A stretch of DNA of 63,355 bases, counting the filler, from Kipferlia bialata (taxonomy: Eukaryota): NCBI GenBank assembly GCA_003568945.1. It is 4 parts of 4 records of this genome, joined end to end, with 100 filler letters (N's around TTAATTAATTAA, not from the genome) between each part and the next. Parts side by side here need not be neighbours in the genome. Positions count along the whole stretch, not along the records: positions 11,177 to 39,542 come from BDIP01000151.1; 3 more parts are not named here. One strand, 5' to 3'. Below the pieces are notes generated by a model. That model was not told the DNA's origin. It did no database searches and worked only from the letters and a program-made list of their open reading frames with translations. Numbering within the stretch: the stretch's first letter is position 1; every line of letters starts with the position of its first letter. Below, in pieces: positions 20,201 to 60,608 of this stretch. Both the position numbers and the translations under genes were made by a program.

Positions 20201-20493
20201 CTTGCTGCACAGTGCGAGGCAGGCCTTCCCAAGAGGACGAAGAAAAGTACGTGGAGTATATAGCTACCGTGTATAGTAATGCTTCTATATCCAGATGCCG
20301 AAATATTCAGTGTGTACATAGTTTCTTCTCATTAACAGAGGCTTCGGCAGGAGGAATACAAGAATGTGTTGCATATATATACATGTATAACTAGTGTGTA
20401 TATAACAGTATGTGCACACGTGTTTATATATCCAGATTCTACAGTTTACTTTGTGTTCATGGTCTCTTCTCATTTACAGAGGCCGCGTGGTGA
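11260..20493 (+). CDS. Large multi-exon hypothetical protein (about 35 short exons, 5'-partial); helical segments alternate with low-complexity charged or Pro/Gln-rich linkers
   Basis: A regular series of 50-300 bp GC-richer exons bounded by CTYAC..YAG acceptors and GTA/GTG donors, e.g. GSDARKEIQEKLTTLEGLPLCLRFPLIVDPIYPAFQ and EKIADGIASTLLDMTPLMDTILATYKE. The terminal exon KAAW-TGA is at 20480-20493. It could be more than one gene. Confidence 0.6.
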
Positions 20494-21379
20494 ACAGAAG
20501 TATGCCTTGAGAGCCACGGGTATCTATGTGTCCCTGTGGAGTGTTTTCTGTTGGGCACTGGGCAGTTGGATGCTGTGTGTCCCCACTCGAGTGAAGGACG
20601 GACTCTGAGTGAGAGAGAGCATCTAGATATGGTGCCTCTGTTGGCAGTAGTTGCTGCCTGAGTTTTGTGTTGGTATGATCGATGGGCCGATCCCAGTATA
20701 TAAATATCGTTGTTTTGCGACTTCCTGCTAGGTCACACTCAATACGTTTTCGGTACCATGCGCATACTGTATACTGTAATGAACTGCCGTACTGTAGAGA
20801 GAGGCAGTTGAGGGGGGTATGGTAGGGATGTCTACATACTGTATACTACAGTGACTGTAACAGCCGGTAGACCATCCACACTGTATACCCTCTACAGTTA
20901 CAAACCAAGACCATCACATATACAGTAGAGCCAGTGAAAGTACTACTGTATTCCTCTGTCTCTCTACCTTCAACTATCCACCTTGAAGTCTAAGGCTTGA
21001 ACGGTTACGGATATACATCTAAACCACTTTAGCCTACCGCCAGAGAAGAAATAGTTACTTGAGTGGTCTGATTGCTGTGTTGTGGATCAAGAGCTGCCCT
21101 CTTCTTCCCTTCTGCACAGGGCAGGTCTACACACGTTCTTGTCAAAAACTAGCTCTAGAGCAGTTGTATGGTGAGTGTCTGTCCGGCCTAGTGTGGTATT
21201 TAACGTCGACATACTTAAGTGTTGGGGTTGCCTCATATTGACTCTTATATCATTTTCACATAGTGTATACGGCAAGCTGAACCCGAGTTTACGATACAAT
21301 TTATAGTATTACTGGTACCAGATTTGCTGGGTATTTCCGTGTAACTAACACCACCTTTGATATCCTGACTGACATACCA

Positions 21380-24300: not shown

Positions 24301-25286
24301 AGCAGTCAGCCAGTGGCTCAGGCTGAGAGCCCACACCCTATCCCACTGGAGACTGCAGCTGCAGCGGCAGAGGAGGTCATAGACTTCACCCAGCCAGACC
24401 CTACCTCAGCACTTGCCAGGTACGACTATTGACGAGTACCATCTGTAGGTTCTTCACACTATAGTATCAGCTACAATGGTATAGTGACTATACCATTGTA
24501 GCTGATCCAAGGAGACAAGCAGCTGCAGATGCGTAAAGGAAGAGAGTTGCCAAAGACTTATCAGGTATATTTCAGGCAGCTGTGGTGTTCTTCAAATCAT
24601 ACGAGAGTAGACTGGAAGTGTACTGTGATTATGTAATGGCGAAGAGTCTATATACTGACACTTCAGACAGCCTTGGCCTTATGATTAAGAGGCTGTCCAC
24701 CTCCCGTGACCCACTGCTTACGGACTACATCGAGAAGTACCCACGAGGCATCCCCAAAGCACACCTGACCAGAGGTGAGTGCTTCCTTCAATATGCTGAT
24801 ACCTTACAATGTAGTCCAAACACTCCCATTCAACACCTCAGTGTCCTGACTCATCTAGGTGTGTACAGCGACATGCTGCTGAGAGTCAAGGAGACCAAGA
24901 AGATGTGCGTTGATGCCCGTGCCCTACTGGATCAGCTGCAGCCTAGCACAGAGAGGGAGGAGCTATCTGGTCTTGTCACCCAAGTGGTACGTACCATAGA
25001 CAAGATATCAAATTGTACATTACTATTGTATTGCTACTGCAGTATCCCATAGGAGTGGAAGCAAGTCTTCTTCAAGAGATATGTGCGTTCCGGTTCTATG
25101 GATCTTCCCACACCCAGCAGCGTCACGTGCCCAGACTCGAGGAGTTAGTTGTAGAATGCGACGCCGGCATCCCTAGGAGGGAGAAGAGACGTAAGTTAAC
25201 GACTATATATAAGCACGTTGGCTTCGGTTTTCTCTAGTGCTATATGTCTACCTAGGTTCTGCTCACATACAGAGCCCTCTTGGTGA
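21380..25286 (+). pseudogene. Multi-exon partial paralog of the preceding gene sharing its last 7-8 exons; in-frame TAA at 24534-24536 (truncated gene or pseudogene); 5' end uncertain
   Basis: Exons from about 23772-25286 align with 18850-20493 (IPPPKxExQ, EQxIxRIRSAVxAGTxVxMxEL, VMGPGYDSSLQQT, DYIxKYPxxIPxAHLTRG), as do some introns and the 3' flank. GCG TAA AGG aligns with GCA TCC AGA of the paralog. Confidence 0.45.
24466..24506. repeat. Perfect 20-bp inverted repeat with a 1-nt loop at the 3' end of an intron
   Basis: atcagctacaatggtatagt-g-actataccattgtagctgat. Confidence 0.9.
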
Positions 25287-26214
25287 TCAGAAGAAGCCCT
25301 TGAGAGACGGGTGTATCTATGGATCCCTGGCCCATGTACTCTGGGGAGTGCTATGTGTTTGGAACCTGAACAGTGGATTGTTTGGAGTCACGCTCCGAGT
25401 ACAAGATGGACTCTGAGTGAGAGAGAGTAATTTGATATGTTGCCACTCTTGGCAGTCATTGCTGTCTGAGTTGTATGTTGGTATGATCGATGGGTCGGTA
25501 CCAGAACATAAACATCATAGTTATGCGACGTCTGGCTATTACAGTGTCATACTCAGATTTCAATGTCGATATCAAACGCATACTGTACACTGTATGTGAC
25601 TGCGTTACTGTTGCGACAGACAGTTGAGTGGAGGTATATGTGGGTTGTCCTTTCATAGATTCCCAAAGCCGGAGACAATCTCGAAGCTGAACCTGTTGTA
25701 TAGAACCTGAAAACAGTATATTACTGACTGTCAGTAATTTACTGACAGACTCAAATATATTCTTTCGAACAACTCTCAAACATATACCAGATCACCCATA
25801 CTCCACTACACACCTGTGGTAGTCTCTGCCTCCTATCATAAATCCCTCACTCACCATATACACTCAATACGCTCCATGAACCGTACTCCATCTACAGCTT
25901 GCATGGTGTGACACCATGATGGTGCCCCATCTGTAGCCCGAGACACTCTGGGGGTGAGATAGAAGTGACACAGATATCCCATATCTATACGTCCATTACA
26001 ATGCCAAAGTTGTCAGGTACGACTACAACAAGAGACTCTTGTATTAAGAGTAGAAAGAAGCCTTCTCACATCCACAGTATAAACACTCAGTCAGATAAGT
26101 ATGTATCCATGATTTTTGTGTTATACCTCCGCTATGGGATACAGACCGTGAGAGTATCAGTGATACTGTGTCATATGTCACTGTTGTATGTACCTTTGTA
26201 GCAGTGAGTGGAAT

Positions 26215-27560
26215 TCAGTGTGCATCTGTAAACCTCTCAAACAGCTGTGGGTCTAGCTCCAGCACCAGTGTCCTTTCCTCCTGTAACACTAGCATAGTGG
26301 TGGGGTTGAGCATACACGCAGCCAAAACCTCATTTGGAAACGTTAGGGGCTCATGGAGAGTGTAGTCACCAGACACTTGGTCAAACATGTATACGCAGTG
26401 GGTCCTGACATCATCTGCTTCTGCGGTGTCTTGTGTCTCCCATCCAAACAGACATATGTAGGCGCCCATGTTGACCGCTACCTCAAAGCCAATGTGTATT
26501 GACCGGCCAGGAACAAGTGCTTTGTCAGTAAACACTCCATCTGTCAAAGAGGTTTGGCCCCGCAGCGACACTATCCTAGCAAGCGACTCCAAATGAGAGA
26601 GGTCCAATGGGTCAGAACCAAAGAATGTCCCAAGGGAGTTTCCAACGGTGCATATAGCCTTTTTGCAGCCAAACACCGAAGGATCCTCTGTGGGCCATTG
26701 CTGTTTCATGGACACTCTTCTCCAGGTCTCTCCGATGTCTACGTTGTGCATATCCAAACACCAGATATCAAGAGGGAAGCGGTATTGAGGTATAGGGTCA
26801 TTAGTTGGGTTCCCAACGTAGTAGAATCCCCCCAAAACCACAAGTGTCTCATCAACTACCACAGCGCTAAATCTGCGCCTTTGTAGGGGCCCGACAGAGT
26901 CTTGTGTGAACTCTAGGTGTCTGTGTAGCCCAGTGTCCGGGTAGAAGACGTACACGCCCAGTGGTGATGGTCTGTAGTCTCCGTCCTCTCTTGCATGCAT
27001 GCCAATCATTTCTAAATTGGACACCAGCACTGTCTGATTGACATCACTGACAAGAACTGGGATCACCATGGTGTCTGTGTCCACACTTAGTCCCAGTAAC
27101 TGTGCATGTTCAGTGATTGCAAGAGTGGTGGGGTCTACAGTGAACCTGGATTAGGGTTTGAACGAACATCTCTACCAAGAATTCAACGTACTACACGACA
27201 ATGTACACTATGATATTAACACTTTTACACAACATGACAGTGTTCAGAACCTACACGGGAAACAGATAGCTTCAACAACACACAGGAAGACTTCGGGTAA
27301 AGTGACTGTCATACCTCTCAACCCGGCCCTCAAGGTCAGCTGCAAGGATAGTGTTGTGGCAGAATGAGGCAACCGACACGTAACACTTTAACCTTCTACG
27401 CAGCTCTGCTGGGTTATCCAGCTGGATCTCTCTACAGCTGAGGTACCACTTCTTGGGTGTCATAGTGAAGAGTGGATGGGGCACAGAGGGGTTGTACTGT
27501 ATCTCTGGTAGGTATGTGTCGTATATGGTAGCTTGGACTCTGCTACTAGTGTAGTGTGTC
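26215..27560 (-). CDS. Divergent kelch-like beta-propeller protein; main exon includes 26215-27084, upstream exons approximate
   Basis: 289-aa ORF with kelch-type strands (AVVVDETLVVLGG, DIWCLDM..ETWRRV, GAYICLFG, VYMFDQVSGDY). A probable upstream exon lies at about 27372-27560. Confidence 0.6.
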
Positions 27561-28409
27561 TAAAGGGTGAGTGAAAGAGAGAGCAAACAGCGCCCAATAC
27601 GGTTAACATCTGTTGATACCCCAACGTAGAGACCTTCTTTCACAGAGAGAGAGGGTATGTAGTGACCTGAAGATACAGTACAGTAGACACGGGATCGAAT
27701 CTCCCATTGAGGCCTGCAACCTGAGAGGAATCACTGACTGAATAGGTATCTGTTCTCAGCGTGCCTATATGTGCGATTGCTGTTGATACTACCTGGTCCA
27801 GAAGAGATATACTATACGGATAAATGCGCCATACTATGGAAAATATCCCTCCTCTAACCATCGTACCCACATGTATCACAACACATCAGACTATTTATGG
27901 GATACCTCCACAGTGTGGAGTCCACACTCTCTAATGGAGACTCCTTATGCGTTACTAATATCACCGTTGCCCGTGTAACTTAGAGTCTCTAACTTAGAGT
28001 ACTTCCCATGAGTGCGATTATCGCACTGTGGGATACTCCTATCTGCATGAACTTGGGTTATGTACTCACTTTTGTATTGTAGAAATAGACTGTGCTCTTT
28101 CGGTTTCTAGGTGACACTGCTTGATGTAACGGTTATGGTGGATTCCTTACGCTAGTTGACCTCCCTTTCTTAAGTTCAGGATATAGTTACTATATCATTT
28201 AGTAGTATAAAGAATGAGCACTCCCGCAATGTAAAGTAGAACATATATCATGCTGCCCCGTTTTTCTCTATCAGAAAATCTGAACAATGCTATCGCTATC
28301 GGTATCAGACATCACACAACCAATAGATATTGACATATATATTACGACATCTCTCTCCCACAACCGAACCAGTCTCACACACTCCACCTATACACTTTCG
28401 CGGTATCAG

Positions 28410-28615
28410 AGACATACTTCCGCACCCCCACCCACCCAACCTGTCTACAGCGTCCACCCTATACTCAAGTCTCTGCATGTACCATCCACCTTCTACAGCT
28501 TGTGAGTTACAGGGACATACTTCCTCACCCCCTCCCAACCAATCTACACTGTAGACTAGCGTCCAACCTGCAATACTCCAATGTATGTCCACCCTCTACA
28601 GCTTGAATGGTGTCC
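28410..28615. repeat. Degenerate tandem duplication of about 100 bp (intergenic)
   Basis: gacatacttcc..cacccc..cccaacc..tctaca..agcgtcca..atactc..tccacc.tctacagcttg occurs twice. Confidence 0.6.
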
Positions 28616-28906
28616 CATGGGTAGCCCGAGACACACTTGGATGAGAGAGAAGTATATACAGATAAGTCCATAGTCATATACATATACGAGTAGAGAGACA
28701 CCTACATAGTATACACAATGGACTCGCCATCCGAGATAGACACAAACACCACACTGCATATACCAATATTCCCACACATACGTCTGTATACATTGAGAAA
28801 CACATTGTATTTAAACAATGTATATACTGAGAAGCTCAGCATCAATAGTAGTGAACACCAATGTGTATATACATCAATGTGATACTAGTACTATGCTTAC
28901 CTCCAC

Positions 28907-29582
28907 CTAGGTGTCCCCTGGCTCATCCGCCTGCCACCTGGGTATGAGAAGAGATTCTGTCAATACAGTAAAGCAGTCATATGGCACTCTCAGACACAAG
29001 CCGCAATAGGGAATACGAAGGAGTATATAGTTAAGGATATGGGTGATTACACAGTGAGGTCTACACTCACCCTGGCTCATGCCGCCCTGACACATCACTC
29101 TCTGTCTGCCTCTCACCCTCGTGAGAAGGCTGTCCAGTCTGTCCCTGGTGTCACCCTAGGGTGAGTGTAGGGCCATTGAAATAGAATATATATACATTAC
29201 ATAGATACACTACACCGTTATAGGAGGCTGTCCAGTCTGTCCCTGGTCACACACTGAGGTGAGCATAGGGTTAGTATATATATATATATATATATTAATA
29301 TACATATTAATTACACACAAACACTACACGAATATCGTGGTCTCACGCTGGGGTGAGTATAGGAGAATAAATATATGTATATACATATATATATATATAT
29401 ATATTCATATTACACAAGTACACTTCACCGCTATCCCTGGTCTCACATTGGAGTGAATATAGGGACAATGTATATATATACACTAATATATGTATATATA
29501 TATATTAATTACACAGATACACTATACCACTATCCCGGGTCTCACGCTGGGGTGAGTATAGGGCCAATATTTATATATATAT

Positions 29583-29615
<33 letters not shown>

Positions 29616-30951
29616 CATATTACATAGATACACTATACCACTATCCAGGGTCTCACGCTGGGGTGAGTATAAAGAGCACAGTGACACAAAACCCAATTGA
29701 TGACATGTATAGTAAGTGATACACATACACTATAACATACACTATCTACAGTATATACATGTACAATTCTATATGTACAATTGTATATATAATAATATAT
29801 GTATGTGTGTGTATCACTCACCAGCTGCTGAGCGTAGTCTCTGGCACCCTGGCCAAGGCGTGTCCCACAGAGGTGTGTGCCACTCCCACAGAGAGATAGA
29901 AGGTCCTCTAGCTGCTGGACCCACCCAGCAATGTAGACTGGGGGTGAGGTGTATACATATATATATATATATATATTAATTGTTGTATAATAGCATAATA
30001 GTATGGGTGTCGGTTAACTATATACATAATAATAGCACTCACCCTCAGTGCACTGCAGTGTGTCCACATCATAATGTATGTATCATAATGTATATATCAT
30101 AATGTATATAGTAGCACGGCTCACAGGTATGTATGTGTATGTATAATGCATATAGCATGAATTAGTATTAGTAACACCCTTACCCTCAGTGCACTGCACA
30201 GTGTCTATAGACCCAAGCTCCTGTAGGAGGACTCTCGTGTGTGTAGAATATATATATACATATATATATATATGTCACGACTACAAATTGTAGTACACAT
30301 ACCCTCAGTGCACTGCAGAGTGTCTATAGCATATTGCATTTAATATCACTTCCATGTTTGTAGAATATATATATAGTAGTTCGATGCTATATATATACAT
30401 CACACTCACCCTCAGTGCACTGTATGGTGTCTATAGACCCAAGCTCCTGTAGGAGGACCACTCTCTGCAGATAGTCTGGTATGTGTGAGAGGGACTGGAG
30501 GTGGGCGAGGCCGGCCTGTGCTCTGGCAGCCACTGGGGGTGAGAATAGTAATTATGTGTATAAATACTACACGCTATGTGTATATATATATATTCATATT
30601 AAGATTGACGAATCGTGACGCATGTATGTGTACATGTGTGTGAATCTATACACTATGTACAAGTGTGATAGAATGTATACTTACTACTCACCATATGAAT
30701 ACATACATACATATAGACATACATATATACATGCGTGTTGAAAAGCATGGTATGTACGAATTCATACACACTCACCGATGTCCTTCATGGTGGCAGGGTC
30801 AGAAGAGGGCCTGGAGTGAGTAACACATTACCCACATATATATACACACACAGGGTACACATGTACCTGTGAGAGGCAAGAGATTATGGAGCAAAGAGAG
30901 CGGTGTGGACACGATCATATACCACCGCTCCCATACAAGGAAAGCATTGTG

Positions 30952-30988
<37 letters not shown>

Positions 30989-32117
30989 ACATAAGTATGT
31001 AAAAGAGAAACAGTGGTATAGAGTGGTGGTGGTGCACATATGGTGTGTACATATATATATATATAGTATACCTGATGATATATAGAACTACATATATAGT
31101 ATATATATAGTATCTATACTTATATAGTATGGTATACCTGATGACAGGAGCAGGTAGTGCACATATGATAAAACATATATATAGTATAGTATACTGTATG
31201 ATATATATAACTACACATATAGTATATATATATAGTATATATACTTATATAATATACATAGAACATATATATAGTATACCTGATGACAGGAGCAGGGAGT
31301 GCAGTGTGTATCATGGCTCTGTACACCCTCCCAGTCCGTCTCACACTCTCTCTGGACGTTAAGACAGTGTGTAAACAGTGAATATACATAAAGACAAAGA
31401 TACATGTCTCACTGGTGGTTATAGTTTTCTCTCTCTCTGGTGTTAAGACAATGCATGTACAATGCCAGAACACAGAGACACACACAAAACATGTTTCACC
31501 GTTGGTTAGAAAACAATAATATATATATACATTATACATATACATACATACATTTATATATATATATACCCCACCTCCTCCTGGAGATTGGCCAGTATCA
31601 GTTTATCAGGTATATGTGTATATATATACATACATGTACATATATATGCCCCACCTCCTCCTGTAGATTGGTCCCCGAGTGGGAGTGGTGGGAGAGTGGG
31701 ATGGAATGACCACACTGCTGCGGAGTCGGGAGGAGCATGTCAGGTCTCTTCCTGATGTAAGACAACATTGTAGTAACTGGTCATGAATAAAACTAATGTA
31801 TTATACACACATGTATTATACACACGCCCCCTCACTGTCAAGTCTCTACCTTGGATAAGAAAGAAGTATATACTTATGAAGTGGTGGAGAGAGAGACCGG
31901 GATATAGAGAGAAACCAGATCGAGTTGTAAGGAGAAATCACCGTGACTGTTAATAGTGTTGTGCCTTACAAGAACAGCGGCTCTAGAACTGGTACCAACA
32001 CTGCAAGTATATATAGAGTATCACACTCATATATATAGTACCGTACCCCTTTCCACTCGCATGGCAAGTGCCTCCTCTGCCTTGGACAGACCAGTGCTGG
32101 AGTGAGATAGTGTTATC

Positions 32118-32152
<35 letters not shown>

Positions 32153-35100
32153 ATATATATATATATATCTGTGTTGAATGTAGCAAGTGCCTCCTCTGCC
32201 TTGGACAGGCCAGTGCTACAGTGAGATAGTGCATCTACATATATATACATACACATATATATATATAAACACACACACATATATATACACACACACACAT
32301 GTATATATATATATATATATGACAGGTATATATCAAGTGCTTACGCTGCCTTGGACAGGCCAGAGCTAGGGTAAGAAAGGTAATGTATATAGATACATAT
32401 ACATATATGTATATAGTGACACAACGTATACTTATGCATACATATACAGTGACATATATAAGTATTCGAATGTGGTATGTAATCAGTGTACTATTACTGG
32501 AGTCAGAGAGGATGTAACTACATACACTTACACTAGTATGTAGGAGTAATAATAGTACGGAGGTTATCATATGTCTGTACTGGAGTGAGCGCAAGTGGGA
32601 TGTATATATGTGTATATGTAAGGATTATGTCCAGTAAATAGACATGACAATAGGTGTCTATGTACCTCACTATGAAGCTGTGCTTCTGGGAGAAGAACCT
32701 CTGCGATTGGGGAGACCCCTTAGTAGGGGTGGACCTCTCTCTCTCCCTCACCATCTTGAAGCGGCCCATGGTGTCCTGAAGAGAGGGTGTACCCGGAGAG
32801 TACCTGTCGTCAGGTAGAACACATACTATTGTCATTATTACTATACACATATGTATACTGTATCATTATCAGTGTAATATGTATATGCGACAATGAAAGA
32901 GAGTGTACCGGAGAAATACCTATAGTTAGCACGAGGGTACAATGAGAGATATAGTAGTGGAGAAACATATATAGAGAGAGGGAGAGAGCGAGAGATGAGA
33001 CGTACATGGGAAGTCACGGTATCTAGAGATATGTATCTGAATGTAGTGGTAACATGTGATTGGGGAAGAGAGTTGGATGAATTAGGCAGCTACACACAGA
33101 CACACACAGACACACATATATACATATATACTATATCATACATGGTAAGGAACATATGTATATATGGTATTGGGCTACACGTAGTCATGTACATATATAT
33201 ATAGTGGTACCTAGCCATTGTCTGACTGATCACAGACACTCACACACACACATATATATATACTATATCATGAAAAGTAAGGAACAACTCTATATATGGT
33301 ATTGAGCGTCAAGTAACATAGTAGTGTATATATATATAGAGAGAGTGATACCTGGCCATTGTCTGACTGATGGTCTCCACTGTCTCTCTCCCCCTCTCTC
33401 TGCCCCTCTCTCTCCCTCTCACTTCCACATAACGAACAGGGGGAAAACTGCATGTTAATATGGTGAAAACAGAGACGTAGTGGCGAGGGTATAACTGTAT
33501 GATAGTATGTGTAAAGACAGACATACCAACAGGAGAACATGCAAGAGACGATAGTACAGGAGATACAACGGGATATTGATATATTGCATAGCCTGGAGTG
33601 AAACAGACAGAGAGAGAGATATATCTGTCAACGATTGCTAAGTAAGAGCATACATATACTGTATCCCCCTGGTATATAAGGAGAGAACTTATATGATAGA
33701 GAAGCAACACCTCGACGTAGCATATATATATATATATATATGTATATAATTACATATATATTGCTCCCTCGTACATATAGCAGAGAGAGCCGGAAGATGA
33801 GGAAGGCAGAGAATATTAGATAGACAGCTGTACCTGAGATCTCCCTGTGAGCGCAAAATCTCTGTATCCCTCTTGTACTGTGCCATCACTTCCCGCCCTA
33901 TTGCAATGACATCGCCGTGGGACAGCCTTCGCTTCATGGGGAATCCTGGGGAATCCTGGGGAATCCTGGGGAATCCTGGGGACAGCCTTCTCTTCCCGGG
34001 GGACACGACTGTCGGCGTCTCTCTCCTTGACTGACCTGACGTTAGACATTAATATATACATATAGATATATGTATATAGATACGGGCATGTACATGTTGT
34101 GTGGATATGTATATACATAAATATATATATATATATATATATATGTCGGATGTATATACATGACTGTTGGTGTCTCTCTCCTTGCACCTGACGTCAGATA
34201 CACCTGTGTAGCATCTACACATATATCCTAGTTACACATATGAATGTATATACAAATGGGACAAATATGTATAGCAGGAACTTCCATGTTCAGATACACA
34301 CAACGTGAGTACACACATCTCCCCACCTGGTGGCTGCTTCCCGGTGCCTGTCAGGGTAGAAGGGGTCTCATTGAGCCTGAGAGTCAGTCGGAGTAGGGGG
34401 GGGTACGCTACACGAGGAGATACATAGGGAGAGGGAGATGGAGAGAGTGTCTGGGTAACGGGGGCGGAGGGGGGCGGAGGGGGGGGGGGGGGGGGGAAAA
34501 AAGGGAAAAAAAGAAAAAAAAAAAAAAGAGGGGGGGGGGGGGGGGGAAACAATCTTCTTGTAGACCCTAGCATGAGTATACAGCAGTATCTATATAGTAT
34601 TCAAAATAGCAGTATACTATATACATATATACTAAACATTATAACTATGAGTATGCATACTGATATACCTTAATTTTGAAGTACTGTATGTACATCTGGG
34701 ATACATATTGTATATATACTGATACCACTATGTTCTATGCTATATATATATAGTGTATATATATAGTATATATAGTATATATAGTATATATACTATCTGC
34801 TATACCTTGTGAAGCACTGTGTGTACATCTGGGGCTGTCTGACCTTGACCATGGCTAGCAGGGTGCCTGTAATTAGAGAGAGAGAGAGAGAGAGGGAGGG
34901 AGAGAGAGAAAGGTATGCCTTGAACATGGCTAGCAGGGTGCCTGGGGTGAAATATATACATACACACTCACACTCACACATATGAATATAAATATATACG
35001 GAGACAGAGAGAGAGGGAGAGAGATGCCTTGACCATGGCTAGAAGGGTGCCCAATGAGAGAGAGAGAGAGAGAGAGAGGAAGAGGTCAAGAGATGGTACG

Positions 35101-35965
35101 AGCATATATAATAATATACCCAAATGCATAGAGTAGATATCCATGCATATGCATACCTAGCTCGTGCATGTGGTATGATCACACACACACATATGTATAT
35201 ATAGGAGATATCCATGTATATGCATACCTAGCTCGTGCATGTGGTGCGAGCCAATATATATACACACATATATTATTAGAGTAGATATCCATGTATATCC
35301 GTACCTAGCTCGTGCATGTGGTGGGGGGCTGCCTCCATGTCACACAGACACCTGAGGGTGAGGGGTAGACAATAGATATGTGTATATATATATATATATA
35401 TACATATAGATTGATAGATAGGTAGATACTACCACTGGTACTATACAGCCTCCATGTCACACAGACACCTGGGGGTGAGGGGCAGACAATAGATTAATTA
35501 TAATACAACGAATATATGCGTGTACTACTACTAGTACCCTACCTATCAACGAGGTCGTCTGACTGCACAGCACAGCAGAAAGAGTATACAAATATATATA
35601 AATATATATGAATACATATATACTATATATACTATAGTATAGTATACTATGTATGTACTCCTATCAATCAGGTAGTCTATCATCTGCCGTGACTGCACTG
35701 CCATGCACAGCACATATACATATATATATACATACATATATACAATACTATATATATAATGTATGGTATATGATACATACCTATCTATGAGGTCATCGAT
35801 CATCTGCCGTGACTGCACTGCCATGCACAGCACAGCAGACAGGGAACGCCTTGAACGGCCTGGCTATGAGGGGAAGACACACACACACACACGCATATAA
35901 AAATATATATGGATAGACACTGACAGGGAACGGCGGGAACGGCCTGGATATGAGGGGGATATATG

Positions 35966-35996
<31 letters not shown>

Positions 35997-37162
35997 ATGT
36001 ATGTATAGGTACTGATACAGACAGGGAGCGGCGGGAGCGGCCTGGATATGAGGGGAAGATGTATATATAAATGCATAGATACTGACAGGGAACGGCGGGA
36101 GCGGCCTGGAGGTGAGAAGCAGAAGTAGATAGATAGATATATATGTATATATATATATATGAATCAGTATGTATCAGTATGTGTATCAGTATGTATTTAT
36201 ATATACCTGACGCTGTACTTAGGGCAGATGACATGGCCCCCAGGATGTGCTTCTCCCAACATATATACACTATTACACTATATAGTATATTTATATAATA
36301 AGTATATATATATATATAATAAATATATAATAGGTATATATCCACCTGATGCAGTACTTAGGGCAGATGGCATGGCCCCCAGGATGTGCTTCTCACCCAT
36401 ATATATATATATATATATATCCATATATACACTATAATATATATATATATATATATTACCACTATGAGTATATCTATATATCACTATACCTGACGCTGTG
36501 CTCAATGCCGATGGCATGGCCCCCAGGATGTGCTTCTCCCCCACATCCCGCCTGACCTTCTGGGCAGAGGACAGGAACACAACCTGGGGTTAGAAACATA
36601 CATATATGCATATATATATGTAATATTGTTAACACTGATGTAATATTTTAGAGTGTTGATCGAAAGTAGTGAATCTGGGCAGAGGACAGAAACACAACCA
36701 AGAGGGTAAGATACACATTAGGGTATTTATATGTATACATATGCATATGTATACAAGTATATATGACTCCAAGTATATATGCATTGATGGCATTTGGACA
36801 GAGGACAGAAACACAACCTGGAGACTGGTATACCTGGAGTTAGGTAGATGTACATACATTATCTGATATGACAACACAAGCATATACGCATGTAAAGCAC
36901 TTGGACAGAGGACAATACAACCACCCATACCTTCTCTGCCTTGCCGAGTGTCCTCTTGCACTTGGAGTGGTACCGTCTATCTATATATATATCTATATAT
37001 ATCTGTATACATATATATATATATATATATGTATGTATCTATACACACCTTCTCTGCCTTGCCGAGTGTCCTCTTGCACTTGGAGTGCAGCAGAATGACG
37101 TTGTCGTTGTCCCGCTGGGCATCAGTACAGAGAGACTAGTATATATGCATACACTAGACTTG

Positions 37163-37199
<37 letters not shown>

Positions 37200-38868
37200 G
37201 TAGCAGGATGACACTGTCACTATTACTACCTGCAGTGCCTGGTTGCACTATACAATATATATATAAATATATGTATCTACCTGCAGTGCCTGGTTGTCCT
37301 ATATAATATATATATATATATATATACATGTACATATATATATTTGTATCTACCTGCAGTGCCTGGTTGTCTGGGTCCAGCTTGGCTGCGGCATCCAGCT
37401 GGATGAGGACATGGGACGTGGCCTGGGTGAGTATATACATGTACAGGGAGAGGGGGGGGAGGAGAGAGAGAGAGAGAGAGAGAGAGAGGATCAGGACATG
37501 GGAGGTGTCTTGGGTCAGAGTACAAAATACATACAAGAAAGTAAGAGAGACAGATGGTGTTGATATACTATACTGATACAGACACATACATATATATGCA
37601 TTCACATACGTTGATTGCCCTGTGGAGGTGTCCGAATATCAGTGTATATACCTCAGACTATATAGTATATATATATCTATATATCTATATAATAGTATGC
37701 ATTCACATACGTTGATTGCCCTGTGGAGGTGCCCGAATATCCTTCTGACACTCAGCTGGTCTAGACAGAAGTATATATGTATATATATATACATACATAT
37801 ATAAACTATTACTTACATTGATAGCCCTGTGCAGGTGTCCGAATATCCTTCTGACACTCAGCTGGTCTGGGAGGGAAGAGGGGAACAGGGTCTTCTTCTT
37901 GAGAGGGGACTGGAGGTGAGTCATATAGTCAATGGTTATACTCAATATAATAGTCAATTACATATTATCACTTAATACCAGTTCTTCTTGCGAGGGGGTG
38001 AGACATAGCCAATAGATTCATTCATATTCATAATGCCATACAATGCATACATGCTCACATGTCAATAGATATCTCTATACACATCCCACCTCCCCAGCCA
38101 CTGTGTCCAGGCCAGACAATCCATCTCTCTCTGTCTCTATATATATATATGTGTATATGTAGTAATGTATCTATATACATATACCTCCCCAGCCACTGTG
38201 TCCAGGCCAGACAGACACTCGGTCAGAGCGAGGAAGGCACTCAGGATCCTAGAGGGTTAGGAGACGTATATTTATACATGTACCACTATATATATATATA
38301 TATATATATGATGTACTATAGACATATATATGCTGTGTCAGAGCAAGGAAGGCACTCAGGATCCTAGAGGGTGAGGGTGAGGGTGAAGGAATATTAATGT
38401 ATATAAATACTTATGTAATATACCTTGCCACTAGTTTGTGTGTAGGCAGCTATTCTACTATACACATTATATACCTAGCCACCAGTCTATGTGTGGGTAG
38501 TTCCTTGGCCATCTCCACCAGTGCCAGGATGACTGGGAGGAGGGTGACATCGGTGTTCTTGGTGTGGAGGAGGCATACAGTGGCCCTGAAGACAGCCCTA
38601 GAGTTTAGGTATATGCTAGTATATACTAGTATATATATATAGAGAGAGCTAGAGAGAGAGAGACTGGTACATGAGGCATACAGTGGCCCCGAACTGCTCT
38701 GGGGGGCATGGTACGCAATAGTACACTAATAGTATACACACATATATATACATATACTATACCTACTGCTCTTTGCCAGCCTGGGTATGTCCATGACATC
38801 TGACTGGGGCATCACATTGCCCCTCATCTTACCAAAGCACACCACAAACTGGGTGCGAAACCTAGGTC

Positions 38869-38900
<32 letters not shown>

Positions 38901-38942
38901 CACACCACAAACTGGGTAGGGAACCTGATAGTAAGCGTGTAG

Positions 38943-38984
<42 letters not shown>

Positions 38985-39420
38985 CTCAGACTGATGTCCA
39001 CCACATCTGGGTCGTATGAGTGACTAGTATGCAGATTATAAATATATAAGTATATATTTATATACACAGGTTAATAATACCTTCTAGTACACTATTGTCA
39101 TATATTATATGTATATAAGTATATATACCTGAGACTGATGTCCACCACATCTGGGTCGTATGAGTGACTGGCATGCAGAATGCAGTTCTGGATACGGATC
39201 ATGTCGTTCCATCCCATGCGCCTCTGGAGGATCAGTATCAGTATATATATATATACAGTTATCATTAGTATAAGTATATATGTATACATATCGGTGCGAC
39301 TACTGCACACACTGGCCTAGACTCTCCATAAATGTGATTCACTACAAACCTGCTCTAGCAGTATCTCTGGTGTGGATGGGTTCTCCAGCAATGCCTTGAC
39401 ACACTCAAAGTAGTATGCAC
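28907..39420 (-). CDS. Multi-exon hypothetical protein (about 20 exons of 35-190 bp, 5'-partial) with long introns filled with microsatellites and exon-edge copies
   Basis: Full exons splice in frame: AYYFECVKALLENPSTPEILLEQ|RRMGWNDMIRIQNCILHASHSYDPDVVDISLR|FRTQFVVCFGKMRGNVMPQSDVMDIPRLAKSSR|AVFRATVCLLHTKNTDVTLLPVILALVEMAKELPTHRLVAR|ILSAFLALTECLSGLDTVAGE|SPLKKKTLFPSSLPDQLSVRRIFGHLHRAIN|ATSHVLIQLDAAAKLDPDNQALQ|SLCTDAQRDNDNVILLHSKCKRTLGKAEK|VVFLSSAQKVRRDVGEKHILGAMPSALSTASG and onward. The phases of the 3' exons are less certain. Confidence 0.7.
29125..39035 (-). repeat. Arrays of intronic partial copies of adjacent exon termini (with splice site), separated by (TA)n/(GA)n/(CA)n-rich spacers
   Basis: Counts include the full exon: ccctcagtgcactg x4 (30037-30422), caagtgc..ctgccttggacag x3 (32084-32360), cctagctcgtgcatgtggt x3 (35156-35322), catggcccccaggatgtgcttctc x3 (36232-36538), cctgcagtgcctggttg x3 (37229-37369), ttgat.gccctgtg.aggtg x3 (37611-37837). 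Confidence 0.9.
33941..33980. repeat. 10-bp tandem repeat (gaatcctggg)x4 inside a predicted exon
   Basis: Four perfect units flanked by the direct repeat gggacagccttc. Confidence 0.9.
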
Positions 39421-39542
39421 CTGACAGTAAGTATATAAGTAATGAGTATATGAACTTGACAAAAAGAGAGATGGAGGGAGTGAGAGTAATAGGGGAGGGA
39501 GCAGGGGGGGGGGGGGGGGGAAAGGAAGACTGTAAGAAAAAA

Positions 39543-39642
39543 NNNNNNNNNNNNNNNNNNNNNNNNNNNNNNNNNNNNNNNNNNNNTTAATTAATTAANN
39601 NNNNNNNNNNNNNNNNNNNNNNNNNNNNNNNNNNNNNNNNNN
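39543..39642. other. Artificial contig-joining spacer
   Basis: N44-TTAATTAATTAA-N44. Confidence 0.97.
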
Positions 39643-40669
39643 GTTAGACAGCCAGGTAATCCGTCTGGGGTTACTTGGTTGCCTGAGCGTGCGTACAAGT
39701 CTGTTTATTAAGCATGTGTGTTGGTTATGGGGTTCGGATGAGTATGGGTATTGGATACCCTGGCAAGACACTCGGCGGTTATCTTGTCGGTAATAGGCTA
39801 TTACAAATAGCTGAGTCAGGGACTCCCCCCTACTCACTCATTCACAAAGCCCTGTAAGAAGTCGTAGTCAAAGGACCATCATTCCATGCCTTCCGGCTCT
39901 ATACCTATGTGACAGTGTCTGAACCTCCACCCATATATCTATTCCACAAGCAAAAGAAGGCAAGGCACTGGGTTTCGTCCTGTCATGGTCCCCAACATGT
40001 GACAGTGGATAGCCTGTGTGCACAGGGTTACAAATAGATATGGTACTGATATTGATAAGGGCGGTTTCCGAAGAGAGTGGGTGATTATCCGATCCCAACC
40101 CGCCCACTGTTGAACCTCCCATCCTCTCTCTCTACCCCACTGCTGCACAGGGAGTCTGCACAGATGGCAAGGCGCAACGTCGTGATTGACTCAGGTAGGG
40201 GACTTGGTGCATGAGCTGAGCTGTGGGTTGGGTTGTGCGTGGCATGGTGTCAGACTGCATGTAGCGTACCATAAGTGACTGTAACGTCATGGCATGACAT
40301 GTCAACATATACCCCACACATATGGTATATACTACTATGCTGCAGTGTATAGTGGCTGGTGGTGCTTAGTGAAGTGTGTGTGCATGGTGTGTGGCGGTGA
40401 CAGTTGCAGTATTGATACCGGTACCGGTACCGGTACCAAATGTGTGCTCATCTCTATACGCCTGTGTACTACCCTATTCAACTACGCACATTTCTAATCA
40501 TGGTCATAGTCGTAGTATAACACTTCTGGGTGTGAAGTGGTGTCATTTAGCTTGTCTATGTACCCATGCACGTGTTCGAGTTGACAGGCCCTGTTTACAG
40601 ACTCTCCCATCAATCCTACTGTCTCCCCCTCCCCCCCACTCTCTTTCCCTCCACCCCCTTATTCCCCAG

Positions 40670-43494
40670 ATGAGGAGTCTGCGGAGGAGTCCACAATGCT
40701 CCTGGACGAGGAGGAGGCCAAGTGAGTAGCATACACTACTATATACAATATACTATATACTGTACTATACATACTATACATACAATGCTCCTGGACGAGG
40801 AGGAGGTGTCTGTCTCTCTCTCTGTATACCCCTCACTATCTCTTCTTTATATGCTGAGTCCACTGTGTCTTCCTCTCATACTCTCTGCAGAGAGTTACAC
40901 ATGCAGAGATGAAGTTCTTTCGTATCCCCCCCCCCCCCCCCCCCCCCACCCCCCCCCCCTTTTTTTTCTCCCCCCCCCCCCCCCCCCCCCCCCCTCTCTC
41001 TCTCTCTACCCATACACATATATAGCTTCCTATATTCATCCCACCCCCAGCCATGTCCATGTCCATGTCCCTGTCTGTGCTGCTCTCTCTCTCTCTCTCT
41101 CTATCTCTCTCTATTATTATACATATACATCTACACACACCCCAGCCATGTCCCTGTCTGTCCTGCTCTACCTGACCCTGAGCCTCACAGCCATATACAA
41201 CAACATGGTGGTGTCCATACAGACATGGGAGGACTTCTATGCATACATGGTCCCAAGTGCAGGTACCTAGCTAGTGTGTGAGGGGTGTTTGTTGCTGCAG
41301 AATGGAGATACTCACTCTGTCTGTACAGTGCTCTATTCCATATAGTTACTGTATCATACATGGTGCGCAGGGCAGGTACAGAGTGTGTGGAGATGTATCA
41401 TAATGTGACTGGCATTGTATAGTATTTCGTTGTATTAGTACATACCTCTATAACATGATTCTGATACTGACACATACTTCTGTATTATACTCTTCAGAGT
41501 TTGCCGTTCTGCTCATTCTCCTCCTCCCAGTATAACCTACGTCTGTGCTAAGCTGACTCGATACATATGAATACTGACATTGGAGTCACCTGCCGTGTAT
41601 GTCCATATACTGGAGTCTAATACATAAGTATGGCATTTCAGACTGACCTTAGCTGTTGCTGCCAACTATTAATACCCACTCTGTATATTCGCTCTGCTGT
41701 CCACTGAAACCTGCTTCATATATACTATATCCCTCCACTGACCCCAGCCGTAGTGGCTGCCAACTGGGCCTCCCACACCCTGGAGACAGTGGTGCTGACA
41801 CTGGTGTATGTGCAGGTGGGTGGCATACTGCGCAATTATATATATAATGTCTGGTGTTCGTAATAATAGTTGACGGCTGAGCTCTGTAAGGGTGGAGACA
41901 AAGCCTGTATACTATGAATAGAGGACGTAGCATAAGTGAAGAAGAAGTACCTGGATTTGTGTGCATGTGGGTGTACATATACATATTGCACCCCCCACCC
42001 CCAGGTGTTCAGAGGTGTCATCAGACCTCAGACATTCAGAAGGGTCCACAGAATATGCGTGGGGGTTGGGGTACTGTTAGGTAAGAGGGTGTATATTGAT
42101 TAGTATGGAATGATGCAAATTCAGCCACTACTAGTCACGTCTTCTATCCCCCTCCTCCACTCCGTCTACTCTTCCCCCAGCCTGCCTTCTAGTGGCAGTG
42201 CATATCACAGACACAGTCTATACCAGGGCACTGTACGCCAAGGGGATAGACTACCTGGTGAACACAGGGTATGTATGTATGAATAGGTGTATGTACACAT
42301 AGAGTTATGACAATATGCGTTTTATTGGGAAGTCTGTTACCTTCTTTTATAGAAATACTAACTAGAATCGTGCTATGTAACATGAAATTGAGTAGTTATA
42401 TGCCTCACCCGCAGAATCACTGAGTACATCCGTGAGAGGGAGTATGTGACCCAGGCCTACCTCTGTCTAGACCTGTGTGCCATAGTACTGATGACACTGG
42501 TGGTGGTGGCACTGGCATACATGCGGAAGGTGCACACTGTGAGCGTATATACAGAGAAATATTTACCTGTATGGTGCATGACAGATGGCACCAATGTACG
42601 GGGAGGAAGGCTGTGTATGAGAGTCCAGTCGGGACAGCTATTTGTCCCGGTTACGGGTGTCACTAATTCTCTTGTTGTAATTATCTAGCGTTGCGCTATT
42701 GGTCTCTCTCACCTTCAGGCCGTCAGCGGTGCCTCTTCGAACATCAAGAGCAGCCAGCACAACACAAGGAGAGAGATTAAGAAGATTGACGTGCTGCCAG
42801 TGGTGTATCTACTGGATGCCCTGTCGATGTCAGTGTTATGGGTGGTGACACAGGTGTATCTATATATGTATATATATATATATAGAGAGAGAGAGGTATG
42901 TACATGCTCTGGGTGGTGACACAGGATGTGTTTATATATGTATATATATATATATATATAGAGAGAGAGGTATGTACATGCTCTGGGTGGTGACACAGGT
43001 GTATATGTATGTATATATGTATGTATGTACATGGGTGTGTATAGTGGTTACGTATAGACTGACACATATGCCACTGTTGTCAACCCATGCCTCTAACTGA
43101 CAGAGCTACAATGGTGACATGTCCAAATGGCAGGCATCGTACACAAAGTGAGTGAGTGAATCAGTGACTCAATGTGGTGTGTGCTGATAAGGAACCAAAC
43201 TCAGCTTATTGCGCTGCACATAGCAAAGCGGTATCCTTTACCCCCAGGCTCACCTTCATCTTTGCCTCTACCATGGGGTGTGTCTGTCTCTGCACTGTCC
43301 TGTACCCAGCCTCCCAGGGCAGGAAGGGGAGGGGACCAGCAAAGTATGCACCAGCTAGAGGTATTCATGTGGTTATCTATTTGTATTCTTTTGTACCTAC
43401 TTGACACTTTGTGTACATAGCCTTGCAAGCTACTGATCACCCTAGAAGCACAGAGACACTTCCATCATGGCAACACCATCAACGGAATGACTGA
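40670..43494 (+). CDS. Multi-exon multi-pass membrane protein (start uncertain)
   Basis: Spliced exons give several hydrophobic helices: SLSVLLYLTLSLTAIY, RVHRICVGVGVLL, AYLCLDLCAIVLMTLVVVALAYMRK, VLPVVYLLDALSMSVLWVVTQ and LTFIFASTMGCVCLCTVLYP. The terminal exon ends in TGA at 43494. Confidence 0.55.
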
Positions 43495-43715: not shown

Positions 43716-46700
43716 TCATATCAACTTGATACCCTGGTACACCATGAATACCACCAAGTATGGCATCATTCTTCCAGCGTTGGTTTCCCGTATCTGCACT
43801 GTATATGTGACTGGGACGTATGGCTGGTCCCACCTGTCCTGCTCCGTCATCATAACATAGACAGAGTCCCCGTTCTCATTGGAGGCCAGGTTGATCAAGT
43901 GTGAGACTGTACTCTGGTATTCAGGCATAGAAGTTTACGTTCGTACTATGAACAACCGACAATTAGACACCGTAGTCCCTACCTCTTTCTCGCCCTGGTG
44001 ATACTCCCCACTAAGGGTGTTGTAGTGTGCAATGGGGGTAATTCCGTGGGACTTGTACCTACGTGCCGATGCACACCAGGGTATGTGCTCTGGCACCACA
44101 GTCTCCCCCTCCACCACCTCTACTGGCCAGTATGGCCCATACTGTATGGGGAGTAACCACTGAGGAACCCAGTGGGTTCTGAGACTATGACCTCAGTTGA
44201 CTCAGGTGCAGCACCAACCTTGCCGTCACCACTTATATGCCGTGGAGACTCAGTGACCCACTGACCCGAGAGGGAAAGAGAGCAGTGGTGGAAGTCTCTC
44301 TCCCTTGTGCTGTAGAATACATGGAGGGTGTCCCCTATCAGCACACTGCCACGGGTATCACTCCGACCCCAGGGGTGGTCGGGCCACCGCATCCACTCCT
44401 AGTGCATCAGTACATACATGAATGGATCAATGGCATCAGTACATACATGAATGGATCATTCGTCTACATACTACAAGCAAACATATCCAATATATAAACA
44501 ACACTTATTACCAGCGCATCCACTCCTGAGACATCAGTGTATAGTGTGTACTACACACACACATATATGTATACTCATACATAACAAGTATGTCAAGCCA
44601 TATCGTACCAATGCAACAATTCCAGTTGGAATGGTGAGTATGGTACCGATGAGATATGAGTGTACACCAGGTGTGATAATACACCATGAAGTCGCCATGG
44701 TGTTCTAGACAGATAACACCCATATGTTCATACGTACAAACGTGTGATTTACCTTCTCCTCTGTGTCGTATGCCCAGGTGTGGTGCTGCTCCGTTGTCAC
44801 AACTAGGTACCCCGGGAGGCGGTTCAGATCAATTTTGGTGTTGTAACCTTTGTTATCGATGATGTCCGGTACAAAAGAGGCACTCCACTCCCTCGACCCA
44901 GTGTCTAGAACGTGTAGAGTAGTTCGGGACTGATGTGGGCAGTGCAGGATGTACACATGGCTGTAGTCACTTGTGCACTTCACGTATGGGTGGGGGTACC
45001 CCCTCTGGGTGGCTGATGCCTCAGGTATGGTAGGGGCACCTGGCAAGCGTTCGACAGTGAGCCCCAACACGCTATCGGTGGCGATACAGTCAGACACTCT
45101 GGTGCACACGTACCAGTGCTCATCGATGAGGACCAGTGTCTCTGCAGCGGTCATAGGACATGACATCCATATGTCACCAGAGGGTAGGTTGTGAGGCCTC
45201 TCGTGATATTCCAACTGCAGGTGGGGGGCACTTGTGAGTAGTGGTAGTCTTTGTAAGTTGCGTAGTGGATGAGACTTAGCGACCCTGTGGCCCTGTGGAG
45301 CTCTTGCTGCCTGACACACAATCGTCTGTATGGACTTTGGACATGTGTGGTCTAATAGCACCCTTGTCACAGAGAGTGTGTTACAACAGTGTAGAAGGGG
45401 CAACATGTGGTGGAGATTCAATGCAGTGATGTTCACTCCCCTCAGGTCAAGGCCTCCCCCGTATCTAGCTCTCAAGTCATCACCTGGAAGACACTCACAG
45501 AGAGTCTGGATGTTGTCAACAGTGACTGACTCAAGCCCCACTGCTATCTTACAGAGACATGCCAGAAGACTTGATGGATCTATAGCAGGCGGGGGAACAT
45601 GTGCAAGTGATGCCTCCCGTCCATCGTCTCCTAGGTGTTGGACACTGGCCACGTCACTTAGGGGTACAGATGGTGCAGGTACTCTGTTTAGGACAGATAG
45701 TGGGTGGAGACCCCCGGTGAGACTACCCAAGAGGTGAGGTAGAGGGGTAGTGGGGTCAGAGGTCAGTAGCATTCTGGCTGCCTTCGCACACATATACACT
45801 AACCAGGGGGCAGACAGTTGGTACCTCTCGAAGGCCCTTAGCACACAGTCACTTAGAGGAGAGCCTGGACACTCTGCTGCAACAAGGAGTAGCTGAATAG
45901 GGGTACTCGAGTGCTGGTAGGACCTTGCATCCACTAAGTACCGACCAGTAGCCTCCTCTATGGTGGCCACTGTTCTCTGCAGGTGACTGAGGATGTAACT
46001 CTGGTGGTTGGGCAGCCCCTGATACAGCTTGTACAACTCCATGCTGTAGAGTCGGCAACAGTACAGGCTGCTCACGACGGTCTCCAGAGTAGACTCGATG
46101 ACACCTGCCAGCAGACTGTGTGTCTGGGGGTACATGCACAAGACCTCGCGTGTCTGTGAGAGAGATGCCTGGGGCCTTCCATGCTCTGCCTCATGCGATG
46201 GTATCCCGTGCCTATCAGAGGCCGACACCAGTATGTCAAGCAGGTCTAACAGAGTGGACGCACAGGACACTGTCGACCCCTCCAAGAGTGTGTGAACTGC
46301 ATGTGTCACACGTGACAGGCCTAGACTGCACAGACTGAGCATAACGGGTATGAGTAGCCTTTGCGGCTCTTCAGAGCTCAGTATCTGCCCCACAACATGT
46401 ACAGCAGCTTCCATCGGGGATGTATGGGTCAGATTACAGATGCCGGACAGAGTCTGAGTGGAACGCAGGTGCTGGACGCATAGGAAGTGAGAGAGACGGA
46501 CAGTGATGTCGTACTCGTTGGTGTATGCAGTAGTGACCATAGCACTGCGTGGCCCTGTCTGCTGGCACAGCAGAAACTGATGACAAAGATGCGAGCCAAC
46601 GGTGTCTTCTGACACTCTGTAGTACAAGCCCGTGCCGGTGTGATACCTCACAAGGGGGCAAGAGCCAAAGAGTCCAAACATATAGATCCAGTCCCCTGCC

Positions 46701-47785
46701 TGCATTGCTAGACCAACCGCAAACGGGGTGTCCGGATGTAGTTTCCATGCGCCACTGGGTGAGAGAGAGACATGAGACGGGGATCCCAAAGTGCCAAACA
46801 CGTGCAGTGTGTCCCCGACCCACACAGTCTGGCATCTGAAGTTACACCATGGGGTGGTTCCAGCAAACGACAGAGGGCTCAGCTCATCCCAGCTGTCGGT
46901 TTCAGTGTCGTAGCGCCACGAGTTAGGTTGTCTGACGTGTTTTCCGTCTTCTTTCCAGAAGCCACCGAGCACGTATATATAGGGTCCCCGTGACTCCGTG
47001 ACAGTATCACTCTGGCAGGTGGGGTGTGGGCCGGTCCCACCACGCCCCACAACTGCCCAAGCATCTGTACGGAGGTCTAGATGAAGCAGGGAGAGAGGGG
47101 TGTCATCTGCTTCAGGGGTAGAGAAGCACGGGTAGTACACAGAGTGCCCCACAGCTGCACCCTTAGGGTGGGTGTCAATGACATGATATGGTGTGAATGT
47201 CATTGTAATGCTAATTGCAGAGAATAGAGTGGGACTTGAGTTGTATTCTTGAATAGTGTAACGATATCAGTCTCAAGTTACCTTTAGTGAGATGGACAGG
47301 TTTCTGCGTATGCCCTCAGGGACCTGTCTAACCCTCCTCCACTCCCAAGTCACACTTCCATCCCCGATCCTTCGTCTACCCACATAGCGTGATGTGATAT
47401 CATTGCCAGCATATGGAGCACTCAGTGTAATTATCATCCTATCTAGACCTATCACAGTTATGGCACTCGTGTGGGGCTGGGCGTCGTCTGGACGAGGTAG
47501 GCCAGGCAGCCACCTATGGGGCATGCCTAGGTGGTCAAGCTCTGGCCCCAGTCTGACACCAGCCAGAGCTGGATGGACATCATTGACACTCTGGTGTCAC
47601 TAACACTATCTCTACCATGGATGTCTGATTCATTGTACAGAGACTGTCAGGAGGGGTATACAGCTCTACAGGATGGTGTGGTAGGAATCCTATGGTATTG
47701 TACAATCCCTATGTGTCGTCACTCGCATTGATCCTACCTTGATTGTACTGAGAAGAGGGGAGACTGTGAGCTCGGGGGGATCCAT
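43716..47785 (-). CDS. Kelch-like protein with N- and C-terminal beta-propeller regions flanking a helical middle; main exon within 44752-47203
   Basis: 832-aa ORF with kelch motifs (GPYIYVLGG, RYDTETDSWDELSPL, VGDTLHVFG, GDWIYMFG; later LHVLDTGSREW, WAYDTEEK). A downstream exon reads EWMRWPDHPW..LIGDTLHVF. The putative first exon MDPPELTVSPLLSTIK is at 47785-47738. Outer boundaries are approximate. Confidence 0.65.
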
Positions 47786-59842: not shown

Positions 59843-60608
59843 GGCCCCCTAGATGTGGATGCCCCTTCCTGCCCAGTGTGGCACTTTGTGCCAGAGGCAG
59901 CCACAATAGGTATGTATATGGATATATATGCATATATAGATACACGTAGTAGGTATTAGATAGCAGAGGCAGCCACAGTAGGTATCATATATACACAGCT
60001 ATATAGTATGCCTCTCTCACTCTCTGTCTCTGGTTTCTCAGGTCTGTCTGGCCTTGACTTCATGAGTGTGTAGACCTATCTCTCTCTCTCTCTTCGTCTA
60101 TCTCTCTCTCTTATCTCTGACCCCTATATGATACTGATATTGATACTGATACCAGGTCTGTCTGGCCTTGAGTTCATGAGTATGTGTATCATTCTCTCTC
60201 TCAGTATATATGTCTGTGTATATACCTTCCCTTACCCCAGGTCTGTCTGGCCTTGAGTTCATGAGCGTGCTGTCCATTGTACTCCTGCTAGTCATACTGG
60301 GCCTGGATGCATGGGTCGGGGTCAGGTATATATCACACTCTATACTACTATACTATACACTATATACTATAGAGTATGGTGCTGGTCATACTGGGCCTTG
60401 ACGCAATGGGTCGGGGTCAGGTGCGGCACTCATAGAGTGTATATAAAATAAGAAGCAGTATGGAGTGCTCCCCCTCACCCCCAGGCGCTACCTCGCCCTG
60501 CACAAGAACGACTACATAGAGATTGTGTCCAAGGACAGGGCCAGGAAGAGGGCCCAGAGAGGGAGGGACGAGGAGGAGTCGTCAGAGCTAGACAGGGGCG
60601 AGGCATAG
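59843..60608 (+). CDS. 3' end of a membrane protein with a C-terminal TM helix and charged tail; exons 59843-59909, 60241-60325, 60485-60608
   Basis: In-frame splice: GPLDVDAPSCPVWHFVPEAATIG|LSGLEFMSVLSIVLLLVILGLDAWVGVR|RYLALHKNDYIEIVSKDRARKRAQRGRDEEESSELDRGEA-TAG. Confidence 0.65.

Follow-up and report, generated by a model that had tools for sequence, protein, structure and literature searches.

Thirty-eight copies of exon edges lie in 18 of the 24 introns of one gene of Kipferlia bialata, a presence far beyond chance, and their differences from the exons are predominantly silent. The gene is part of the 63,355-nucleotide stretch of DNA analysed here (the window), which consists of four contig pieces with N linkers between them, the gene lying on the second. 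The silent bias falls under the floor expected of dead duplicates, which gives a direct handle on the origin of exon-boundary repeats and points to exchange between diverged alleles. The three truncated copies of the end of exon 21 are likely untranslated today and likely derive from working exon ends of diverged alleles, moved into the intron by unequal recombination. The host gene was modelled by hand without a homologue; all of its introns obey AG/GT, and one junction is backed by RNA. The features around exon 21 are as follows.

28596–39420, minus strand: host gene, hand-built model with 25 exons and 700 open codons to the stop; the 5′ part lies past the contig end
30410–30532, minus strand: working exon 21 of the hand-built model, 123 nt, frame continuous with exons 20 and 22
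30301–30329, minus strand: copy 1, the last 27 of the 123 exon 21 bases with ACT CTG (Leu), plus GT donor (alignment; DNA contig 30280–30456)
30182–30232, minus strand: copy 2, the last 49 of the 123 bases with ACT GTG (Val), plus GT donor (alignment; DNA contig 29987–30230)
30041–30064, minus strand: copy 3, the last 22 of the 123 bases with ACA CTG (Leu), plus GT donor (alignment; DNA contig 29987–30230)
29938–30409, minus strand: intron 21, 472 nt, with four GT-starting, TA-rich spacers of little mutual similarity and a single acceptor at 29938
29822–29937, minus strand: exon 22, its end joined to exon 23 in one RNA-type contig (run X2)
29156–29821, minus strand: intron 22, with an acceptor-copy array of about 99-nt period at 29240–29671, skipped in the single spliced contig

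On the minus strand, exon 21 ends TCT ATA GAC ACC ATA CAG TGC ACT GAG G|gtgagt, which encodes SIDTIQCTE. An earlier, sequence-only reading had described this D-T-I-Q-C-T-E end followed by three copies that read L, V and L, each with a GT donor, and both the sequence and the DNA contigs bear it out. The positions it gave for the copies (about 30302, 30182 and 30037) lie within 1–6 bases of the copy ends and donors at 30303 |gtatgt, 30184 |gtaagg and 30043 |gtgagt. Copy 2 has 6 more matching bases past a possible 3-base gap. The copies have neither an acceptor nor an exon body of their own, and their first 12 intron bases are 50–58% identical to those of the real donor. The spacers of the four versions measure 70–118 nt and are unlike each other. 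Parsimony reduces the four versions to 5 changes, and the probability that all of these are silent or conservative (BLOSUM at least 1) is 0.035; a value of 0.002 is obtained only if the 9 pairwise differences are taken as independent, which they are not. A chance origin of the conservative pattern is thus modestly unlikely on the array by itself, which has a pN/pS of 0.28 and is weak evidence. Since the exon 21 array alone is weak, the inference of selection needs the rest of the host gene.

The gene-wide count was obtained by aligning each exon to both flanking introns at a score of at least 26, which 5 of 552 control pairs reach. A junction-anchored test gave 31 matches in 48 tests versus 1 in 1152 control tests; in an anchor control with other dinucleotides, any dinucleotide within a repeat scores. 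Donor copies lie at the 5′ end of the intron and acceptor copies at the 3′ end, donor before acceptor in all 8 introns that have both. Donor copies extend to the exon end, with an internal deletion in 1 of 21, and acceptor copies start at the exon start or at most 7 bases from it. The splice dinucleotides are in register in most copies (GT in 18 of 21 donor copies, AG in 11 of 17 acceptor copies). The exon-like parts are 77–100% identical to the exon (93% for donor copies, 91% for acceptor copies), and 7 of the 38 copies are fully identical to it. Over the first 12 intron bases, compared without gaps, identity to the real site is 50% for donors and 57% for acceptors, against 33% and 38% for unrelated sites. 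Dinucleotide runs of at least 6 adjoin 76% of the 38 copy breakpoints versus 49% of the background, and TA tracts occupy 332–356 bases per 4 kb in 28001–40000 versus 0–62 elsewhere in the window. The copies are concentrated in this TA-dense part, and a scan of the window found none between 12000 and 28000, although multi-exon genes are present there. Both the gene-wide spread and the geometry, which is that of a described repeat type (the mirages of amphioxus), were missing from the sequence-only reading. Three further sets of copies in the host gene are as follows.

36207–36402, minus strand: two donor copies of exon 9; in the 57-nt copy 8 codons differ, 7 of them silently
35922–36105, minus strand: three acceptor copies of exon 10, every codon change silent, including AGG to CGC
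38424–38449, minus strand: donor copy of exon 4, 26 nt with 6 changes, of which 5 are silent and the sixth turns Arg into Lys

Homology searches with exons 21 and 14 against longer proteins, and with exon 4 in the Atlas, gave no homologue of the host gene, and 13 exons gave no match in Pfam; the queries were short, and both results are weak evidence. Modelled exon 14 contains a perfect 10-base repeat (4.6 copies, 33937–33982) in which three added units keep the frame. The last exon with its acceptor (28540–28650, minus strand) has a diverged copy at about 25850–25960 (minus strand), about 2.7 kb downstream and beyond a kelch-like ORF at 26215–27150. That ORF and another at 44705–47266, both long, single-exon and on the minus strand, have kelch or beta-propeller matches. 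A pair of diverged copies, each a few hundred bases long, was seen by eye at about 20480–20760 and 25270–25620 (both minus strand), about 4.8 kb apart, and is possibly a duplicated gene end. The neighbouring plus-strand multi-exon gene on the same contig (about 11260–19500) has one clear exon-edge copy (11829–11857) versus the 38 of the host gene. It also holds older, exon-scale repeats at about 12730–13340 (plus strand), with similar ends near 12762 and 13134 and similar starts near 12930 and 13302, again by eye. Two genes on other contigs (40670–42998 and 59877–60420, both plus strand) contain copies of donor and of acceptor edges whose changes are silent or conservative, together with one 1-base insertion. 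The remaining gene noted in the window is a PPi-type PEP carboxykinase (1938–5158, plus strand), whose ORF is 100% identical to a Kipferlia bialata protein, nearly intron-free and about 60% GC; it belongs to a bacterial-like family, with best non-self matches at 44–47% identity, and the species has a paralogue of it at 72%.

Comparison of all 38 copies with their exons gave a pN/pS of 0.143, with 16, 10 and 60 changes at codon positions 1, 2 and 3. When each change is counted once, the positions stand at 12, 10 and 44, and 43 of the 66 unique changes are silent versus 23 replacements; pN/pS is then 0.174 (95% CI 0.11–0.30, bootstrap over 26 junctions). Shifted reading frames give 2.2 and 2.3. 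A spectrum-matched neutral null yields a mean of 18.9 silent changes and a maximum of 35 in 20,000 runs, against the 43 observed. A dead-from-birth null, in which a dead copy is compared with an exon that accepts only silent changes, expects 29.4 (P = 6e-4), and restriction to the nearest copy at each of the 26 junctions leaves 37 silent changes against 18 replacements (P = 6e-4). For exons 15 and 18 the reading frame was chosen partly by reference to their copies; with exons 15, 18 and 21 omitted, the all-copy pN/pS is 0.127. Double silent changes are present (AGG to CGC, TTG to CTA, TTA to CTC). In three other genes, six hand-picked exons with ten copies show a weaker pattern (codon positions 4, 2 and 12; 10 silent to 8; ratio about 0.28). 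The ancestry under purifying selection proposed in the sequence-only reading is therefore supported by the whole gene (43 of 66 silent, against 18.9 and 29.4), although not by the exon 21 array alone.

The further claim that each copy had passed through selection is overstated. The exon 21 copies are 1–2 changes apart from one another and have one base common to all three against the exon; at other exons, decay is plain in some copies, with one stop, one frameshift and lost GT or AG. Replacements, several of them radical, occur in 20 of 59 unique codon changes, and in the exon 12 copy all 3 changes are replacements. At 13 sites every copy of a junction stands against the exon; at 15 sites the copies disagree with one another. 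No clear gradient of decay with distance from the exon was found (pN 0.032 for the nearest copies, 0.041 farther away).

The ratio itself bears on when the copies lost their function. Where a copy escapes selection from the moment it arises, neutral evolution fills half of the time that separates it from the exon, and pN/pS cannot then drop far below 0.5; a lower value would require both sequences to have been working exon for most of their separation, as different alleles or homologues. In the origin proposed here, the TA-microsatellite-rich introns of the host gene would diverge fast, and because of this the exon edges would be the sole homology left between alleles. A first duplication across a junction would arise when the DNA breaks or a template switch occurs close to a TA tract. 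Misaligned exchange between different alleles, inside the exon-like part, would then convert a working end and its own intron start into an intronic copy, which could return to use only while it still coded properly. The spliceosome would take the site adjoining the exon body, so that splicing would tolerate the copies, which would later decay. Past each GT, the spacers resemble one another far less than the exon-like parts do, in agreement with an allele origin; the low spacer identity, measured without gaps, may alternatively reflect microsatellite slippage.

A toy simulation run forward with 150 chromosomes and 14 seeds for each setting, used as a consistency check and not as a fit, gave pooled pN/pS values of 0.64, 0.57 and 0.53 with sister-only exchange (seeds 0.37–1.01); where alleles could exchange with one another, the values were 0.35, 0.16 and 0.09 (seeds 0.04–0.66), one of these settings having a pS of 0.15 at a ratio of 0.16. 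The lowest sister-only seed, 0.26, came from a noisy earlier simulation with one seed per setting. The observed ratio is matched in the toy simulation only with exchange between alleles. Metamonads are reported to lack Ku/NHEJ or DNA-PKcs, and fornicates to lack Rad51A while having two Dmc1 (PMC8516963); mismatched heteroduplex joints are described as stabilised by Dmc1 (PMC6719624). The repair kit of the lineage thus fits exchange between diverged alleles. The observed ratio would imply that the copies arose recently compared with the age of the alleles, and the allele model predicts a silent diversity of about 0.15–0.2 among wild alleles of the host gene. A silent diversity near 0.2 is very high, which counts against the model.

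Allele demotion and a later replacement of the exon both need recombination between diverged working sequences. Under replacement, the main rival reading, the copies would be frozen same-chromosome duplicates, and the exon would have been overwritten afterwards by gene conversion from a diverged allele, a hybrid partner or a lost paralogue, so that silent changes would fall only on the exon branch. To judge from the sequences, the long exon branch would fit this course as well as it fits allele demotion: of the 13 sites at which all copies stand against the exon, 11 are third positions and the other 2 belong to silent double changes. Replacement is nevertheless unlikely, as the differences between copies are still at third positions in 9 of 15 cases, the spacers of the four exon 21 versions are unlike each other, and no other long exon 21 match occurs among the X1 pieces listed.

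A classic neutral mirage, in which a clonal line would gain copies through tandem duplication or exchange between sisters and the copies, never functional, would decay randomly, is quite improbable. Its geometry would suit any tandem duplication over a junction, and the 7 identical copies and the clearly decayed ones would be expected of it, but it predicts a pN/pS of at least 0.5, which 2 of 10,000 bootstrap samples reach, and the sister-only simulation remained at 0.53–0.64 against the 0.174 found. Equally improbable is the idea that the copies are repair templates under selection, where breaks in TA spacers would be mended by annealing of exon end and copy, and a copy that often becomes the working end must stay coding-equivalent. 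The proportions of GT and AG in register, 18 of 21 and 11 of 17, and the reported dependence of the lineage on homologous repair (PMC8516963) speak for it. A pop-out rate high enough to be selectable would, however, probably delete copies before they reached 20% silent divergence, and high-rate sister-only runs gave a pS of 0.02–0.04 at ratios of 0.53–0.57.

Working alternative splicing, in which the copies serve as alternative exon ends yielding I, L or V proteins, is highly improbable. The coding conservation and the intact donors would suit it, but splicing at the inner donors of exon 21 would lengthen the message by 107, 226 or 367 bases, each a frameshift with stops, and alternative 5′ splice sites that keep an open frame were rejected for this reason. 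Over 37 copies, the added lengths fall 13, 14 and 10 across the three frames, and 4 are in frame and open; the AG|GT that would allow a splice to swap the exon edge for the copy is present in 0 of 37. The copies therefore cannot be used by productive splicing. The single spliced contig also takes the last acceptor of intron 22: it belongs to run X2, taken as RNA by guess, has a depth of 3.9, leaves exon 22 at 29821 and resumes with the start letters of exon 23, skipping the acceptor copies of intron 22. The X2 contigs do not cover exon 21 and are no evidence there either way.

The DNA run X1 consists of contigs, not long reads, and is possibly the source of the assembly itself. Copies 3 and 2 lie together in contig 29987–30230 (0 other letters, depth 397), copy 1 lies with the end of exon 21 in contig 30280–30456 (no other letters, depth 404), and contig 30429–30930 likewise has no other letters (depth 376). 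The TA tract at 30232–30279 was skipped as a repeat, so that no X1 contig bridges copies 1 and 2. No second allele appears in X1 across 29700–30930, and metagenome scans for other isolates gave no matches, which says little; the earlier description of an allelic series is the best reading here too, although neither source shows a second allele. An assembly artefact, in which the haplotypes of a mixed culture were placed one after another, would draw on the short-read data, the TA repeats between units and the unbridged link, but it has the faintest probability of all, since single contigs join a TA spacer straight to mid-exon and contain two successive versions at exon depth (376–404), whereas stacking of an allele would leave an entire exon at reduced depth.

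On the preferred reading, namely demotion of the ends of diverged alleles, the process may extend beyond this gene. A Ku-less, Dmc1-only recombination acting genome-wide could copy the exon edges of strongly diverged homologues into introns and occasionally promote them back, so that introns would be a working reservoir of tested alleles; we regard this wider version as rather doubtful. If it were true, one cultured clone would be a readable sample of the polymorphism of the species as well as a proof of inter-lineage recombination, and the same process would account for mirages in hyperpolymorphic animals. If the pattern is genome-wide, the genome of a single free-living fornicate would give evidence of inter-lineage recombination together with an estimate of allelic diversity, would show one route of intron growth, and would supply natural experiments by the hundred on how splice sites are chosen when donors and acceptors are nearly identical. 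Exon-edge copies can also lead gene models and dN/dS scans astray.

Tandem exon duplication with mutually exclusive splicing likewise yields duplicated coding sequence that lies within a gene and is under purifying selection, but as whole exons with acceptor and donor. The units described here are half-exons, with the donor copies ahead of the acceptor copies in all 8 introns that contain both kinds. Mutually exclusive exons were rejected, as the exon 21 copies comprise 22–49 of 123 bases and are not whole exons with both splice sites. In the Rogers model, introns are gained by duplication of an AG|GT proto-splice site (as cited in PMC3087553). This is likewise a local coding duplication beside splice signals; here no new intron was formed, and Rogers-type gain was rejected because 0 of 37 copies contain AG|GT. 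The human F7 intron 7 carries a 37-bp minisatellite in which the real donor is followed by silent pseudo-donors, the most upstream site being used exclusively (PMC1557585). As far as that source describes it, F7 is a single locus with sequence-identical pseudo-sites and no coding signature, unlike the Kipferlia bialata copies.

The closest known system is the mirages of amphioxus, described at Adh3, the globins BflGb6 and BflGb9, troponin C and PGBD5 as tandem copies of exon–intron boundaries on the donor and acceptor sides, many of which keep GT/AG (PMC3087553, PMC3902484). Their units are 81–100% alike in BflGb6, normal splicing is apparently unaffected, and length instability is reported; unequal crossing-over was proposed, with the mechanism called unclear (PMC3087553). 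Amphioxus is highly polymorphic, with a heterozygosity of 3.2–4.2% (PMC10013865), which by analogy would be as the allele model would want. The Kipferlia bialata copies likewise span exon–intron boundaries on both sides, and many units have GT or AG. They differ in that homogeneous whole-length units are absent: the exon-like parts are 77–100% identical and the next 12 intron bases about 50%. In contrast to the amphioxus minisatellites, a protist gene here has copies in 18 of 24 introns, as 1–5 units with unlike, TA-rich spacers, although in introns 11 and 22 a few arrays have a period-like arrangement. The silent bias measured here is unreported in the available parts of the two mirage papers (PMC3087553, PMC3902484). 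A literature search, with subscription papers, supplements and the original Adh3 paper outside it, found no report of such copies in Kipferlia bialata or any protist and none of a silent bias in mirages, and the main text of the Kipferlia bialata draft-genome paper, as available, has 0 matches for "duplicat" and "tandem" (PMC5874029). The geometry is thus already known from mirages; what is new is the protist host, the density of the copies, their unrelated spacers and the measured silent bias.
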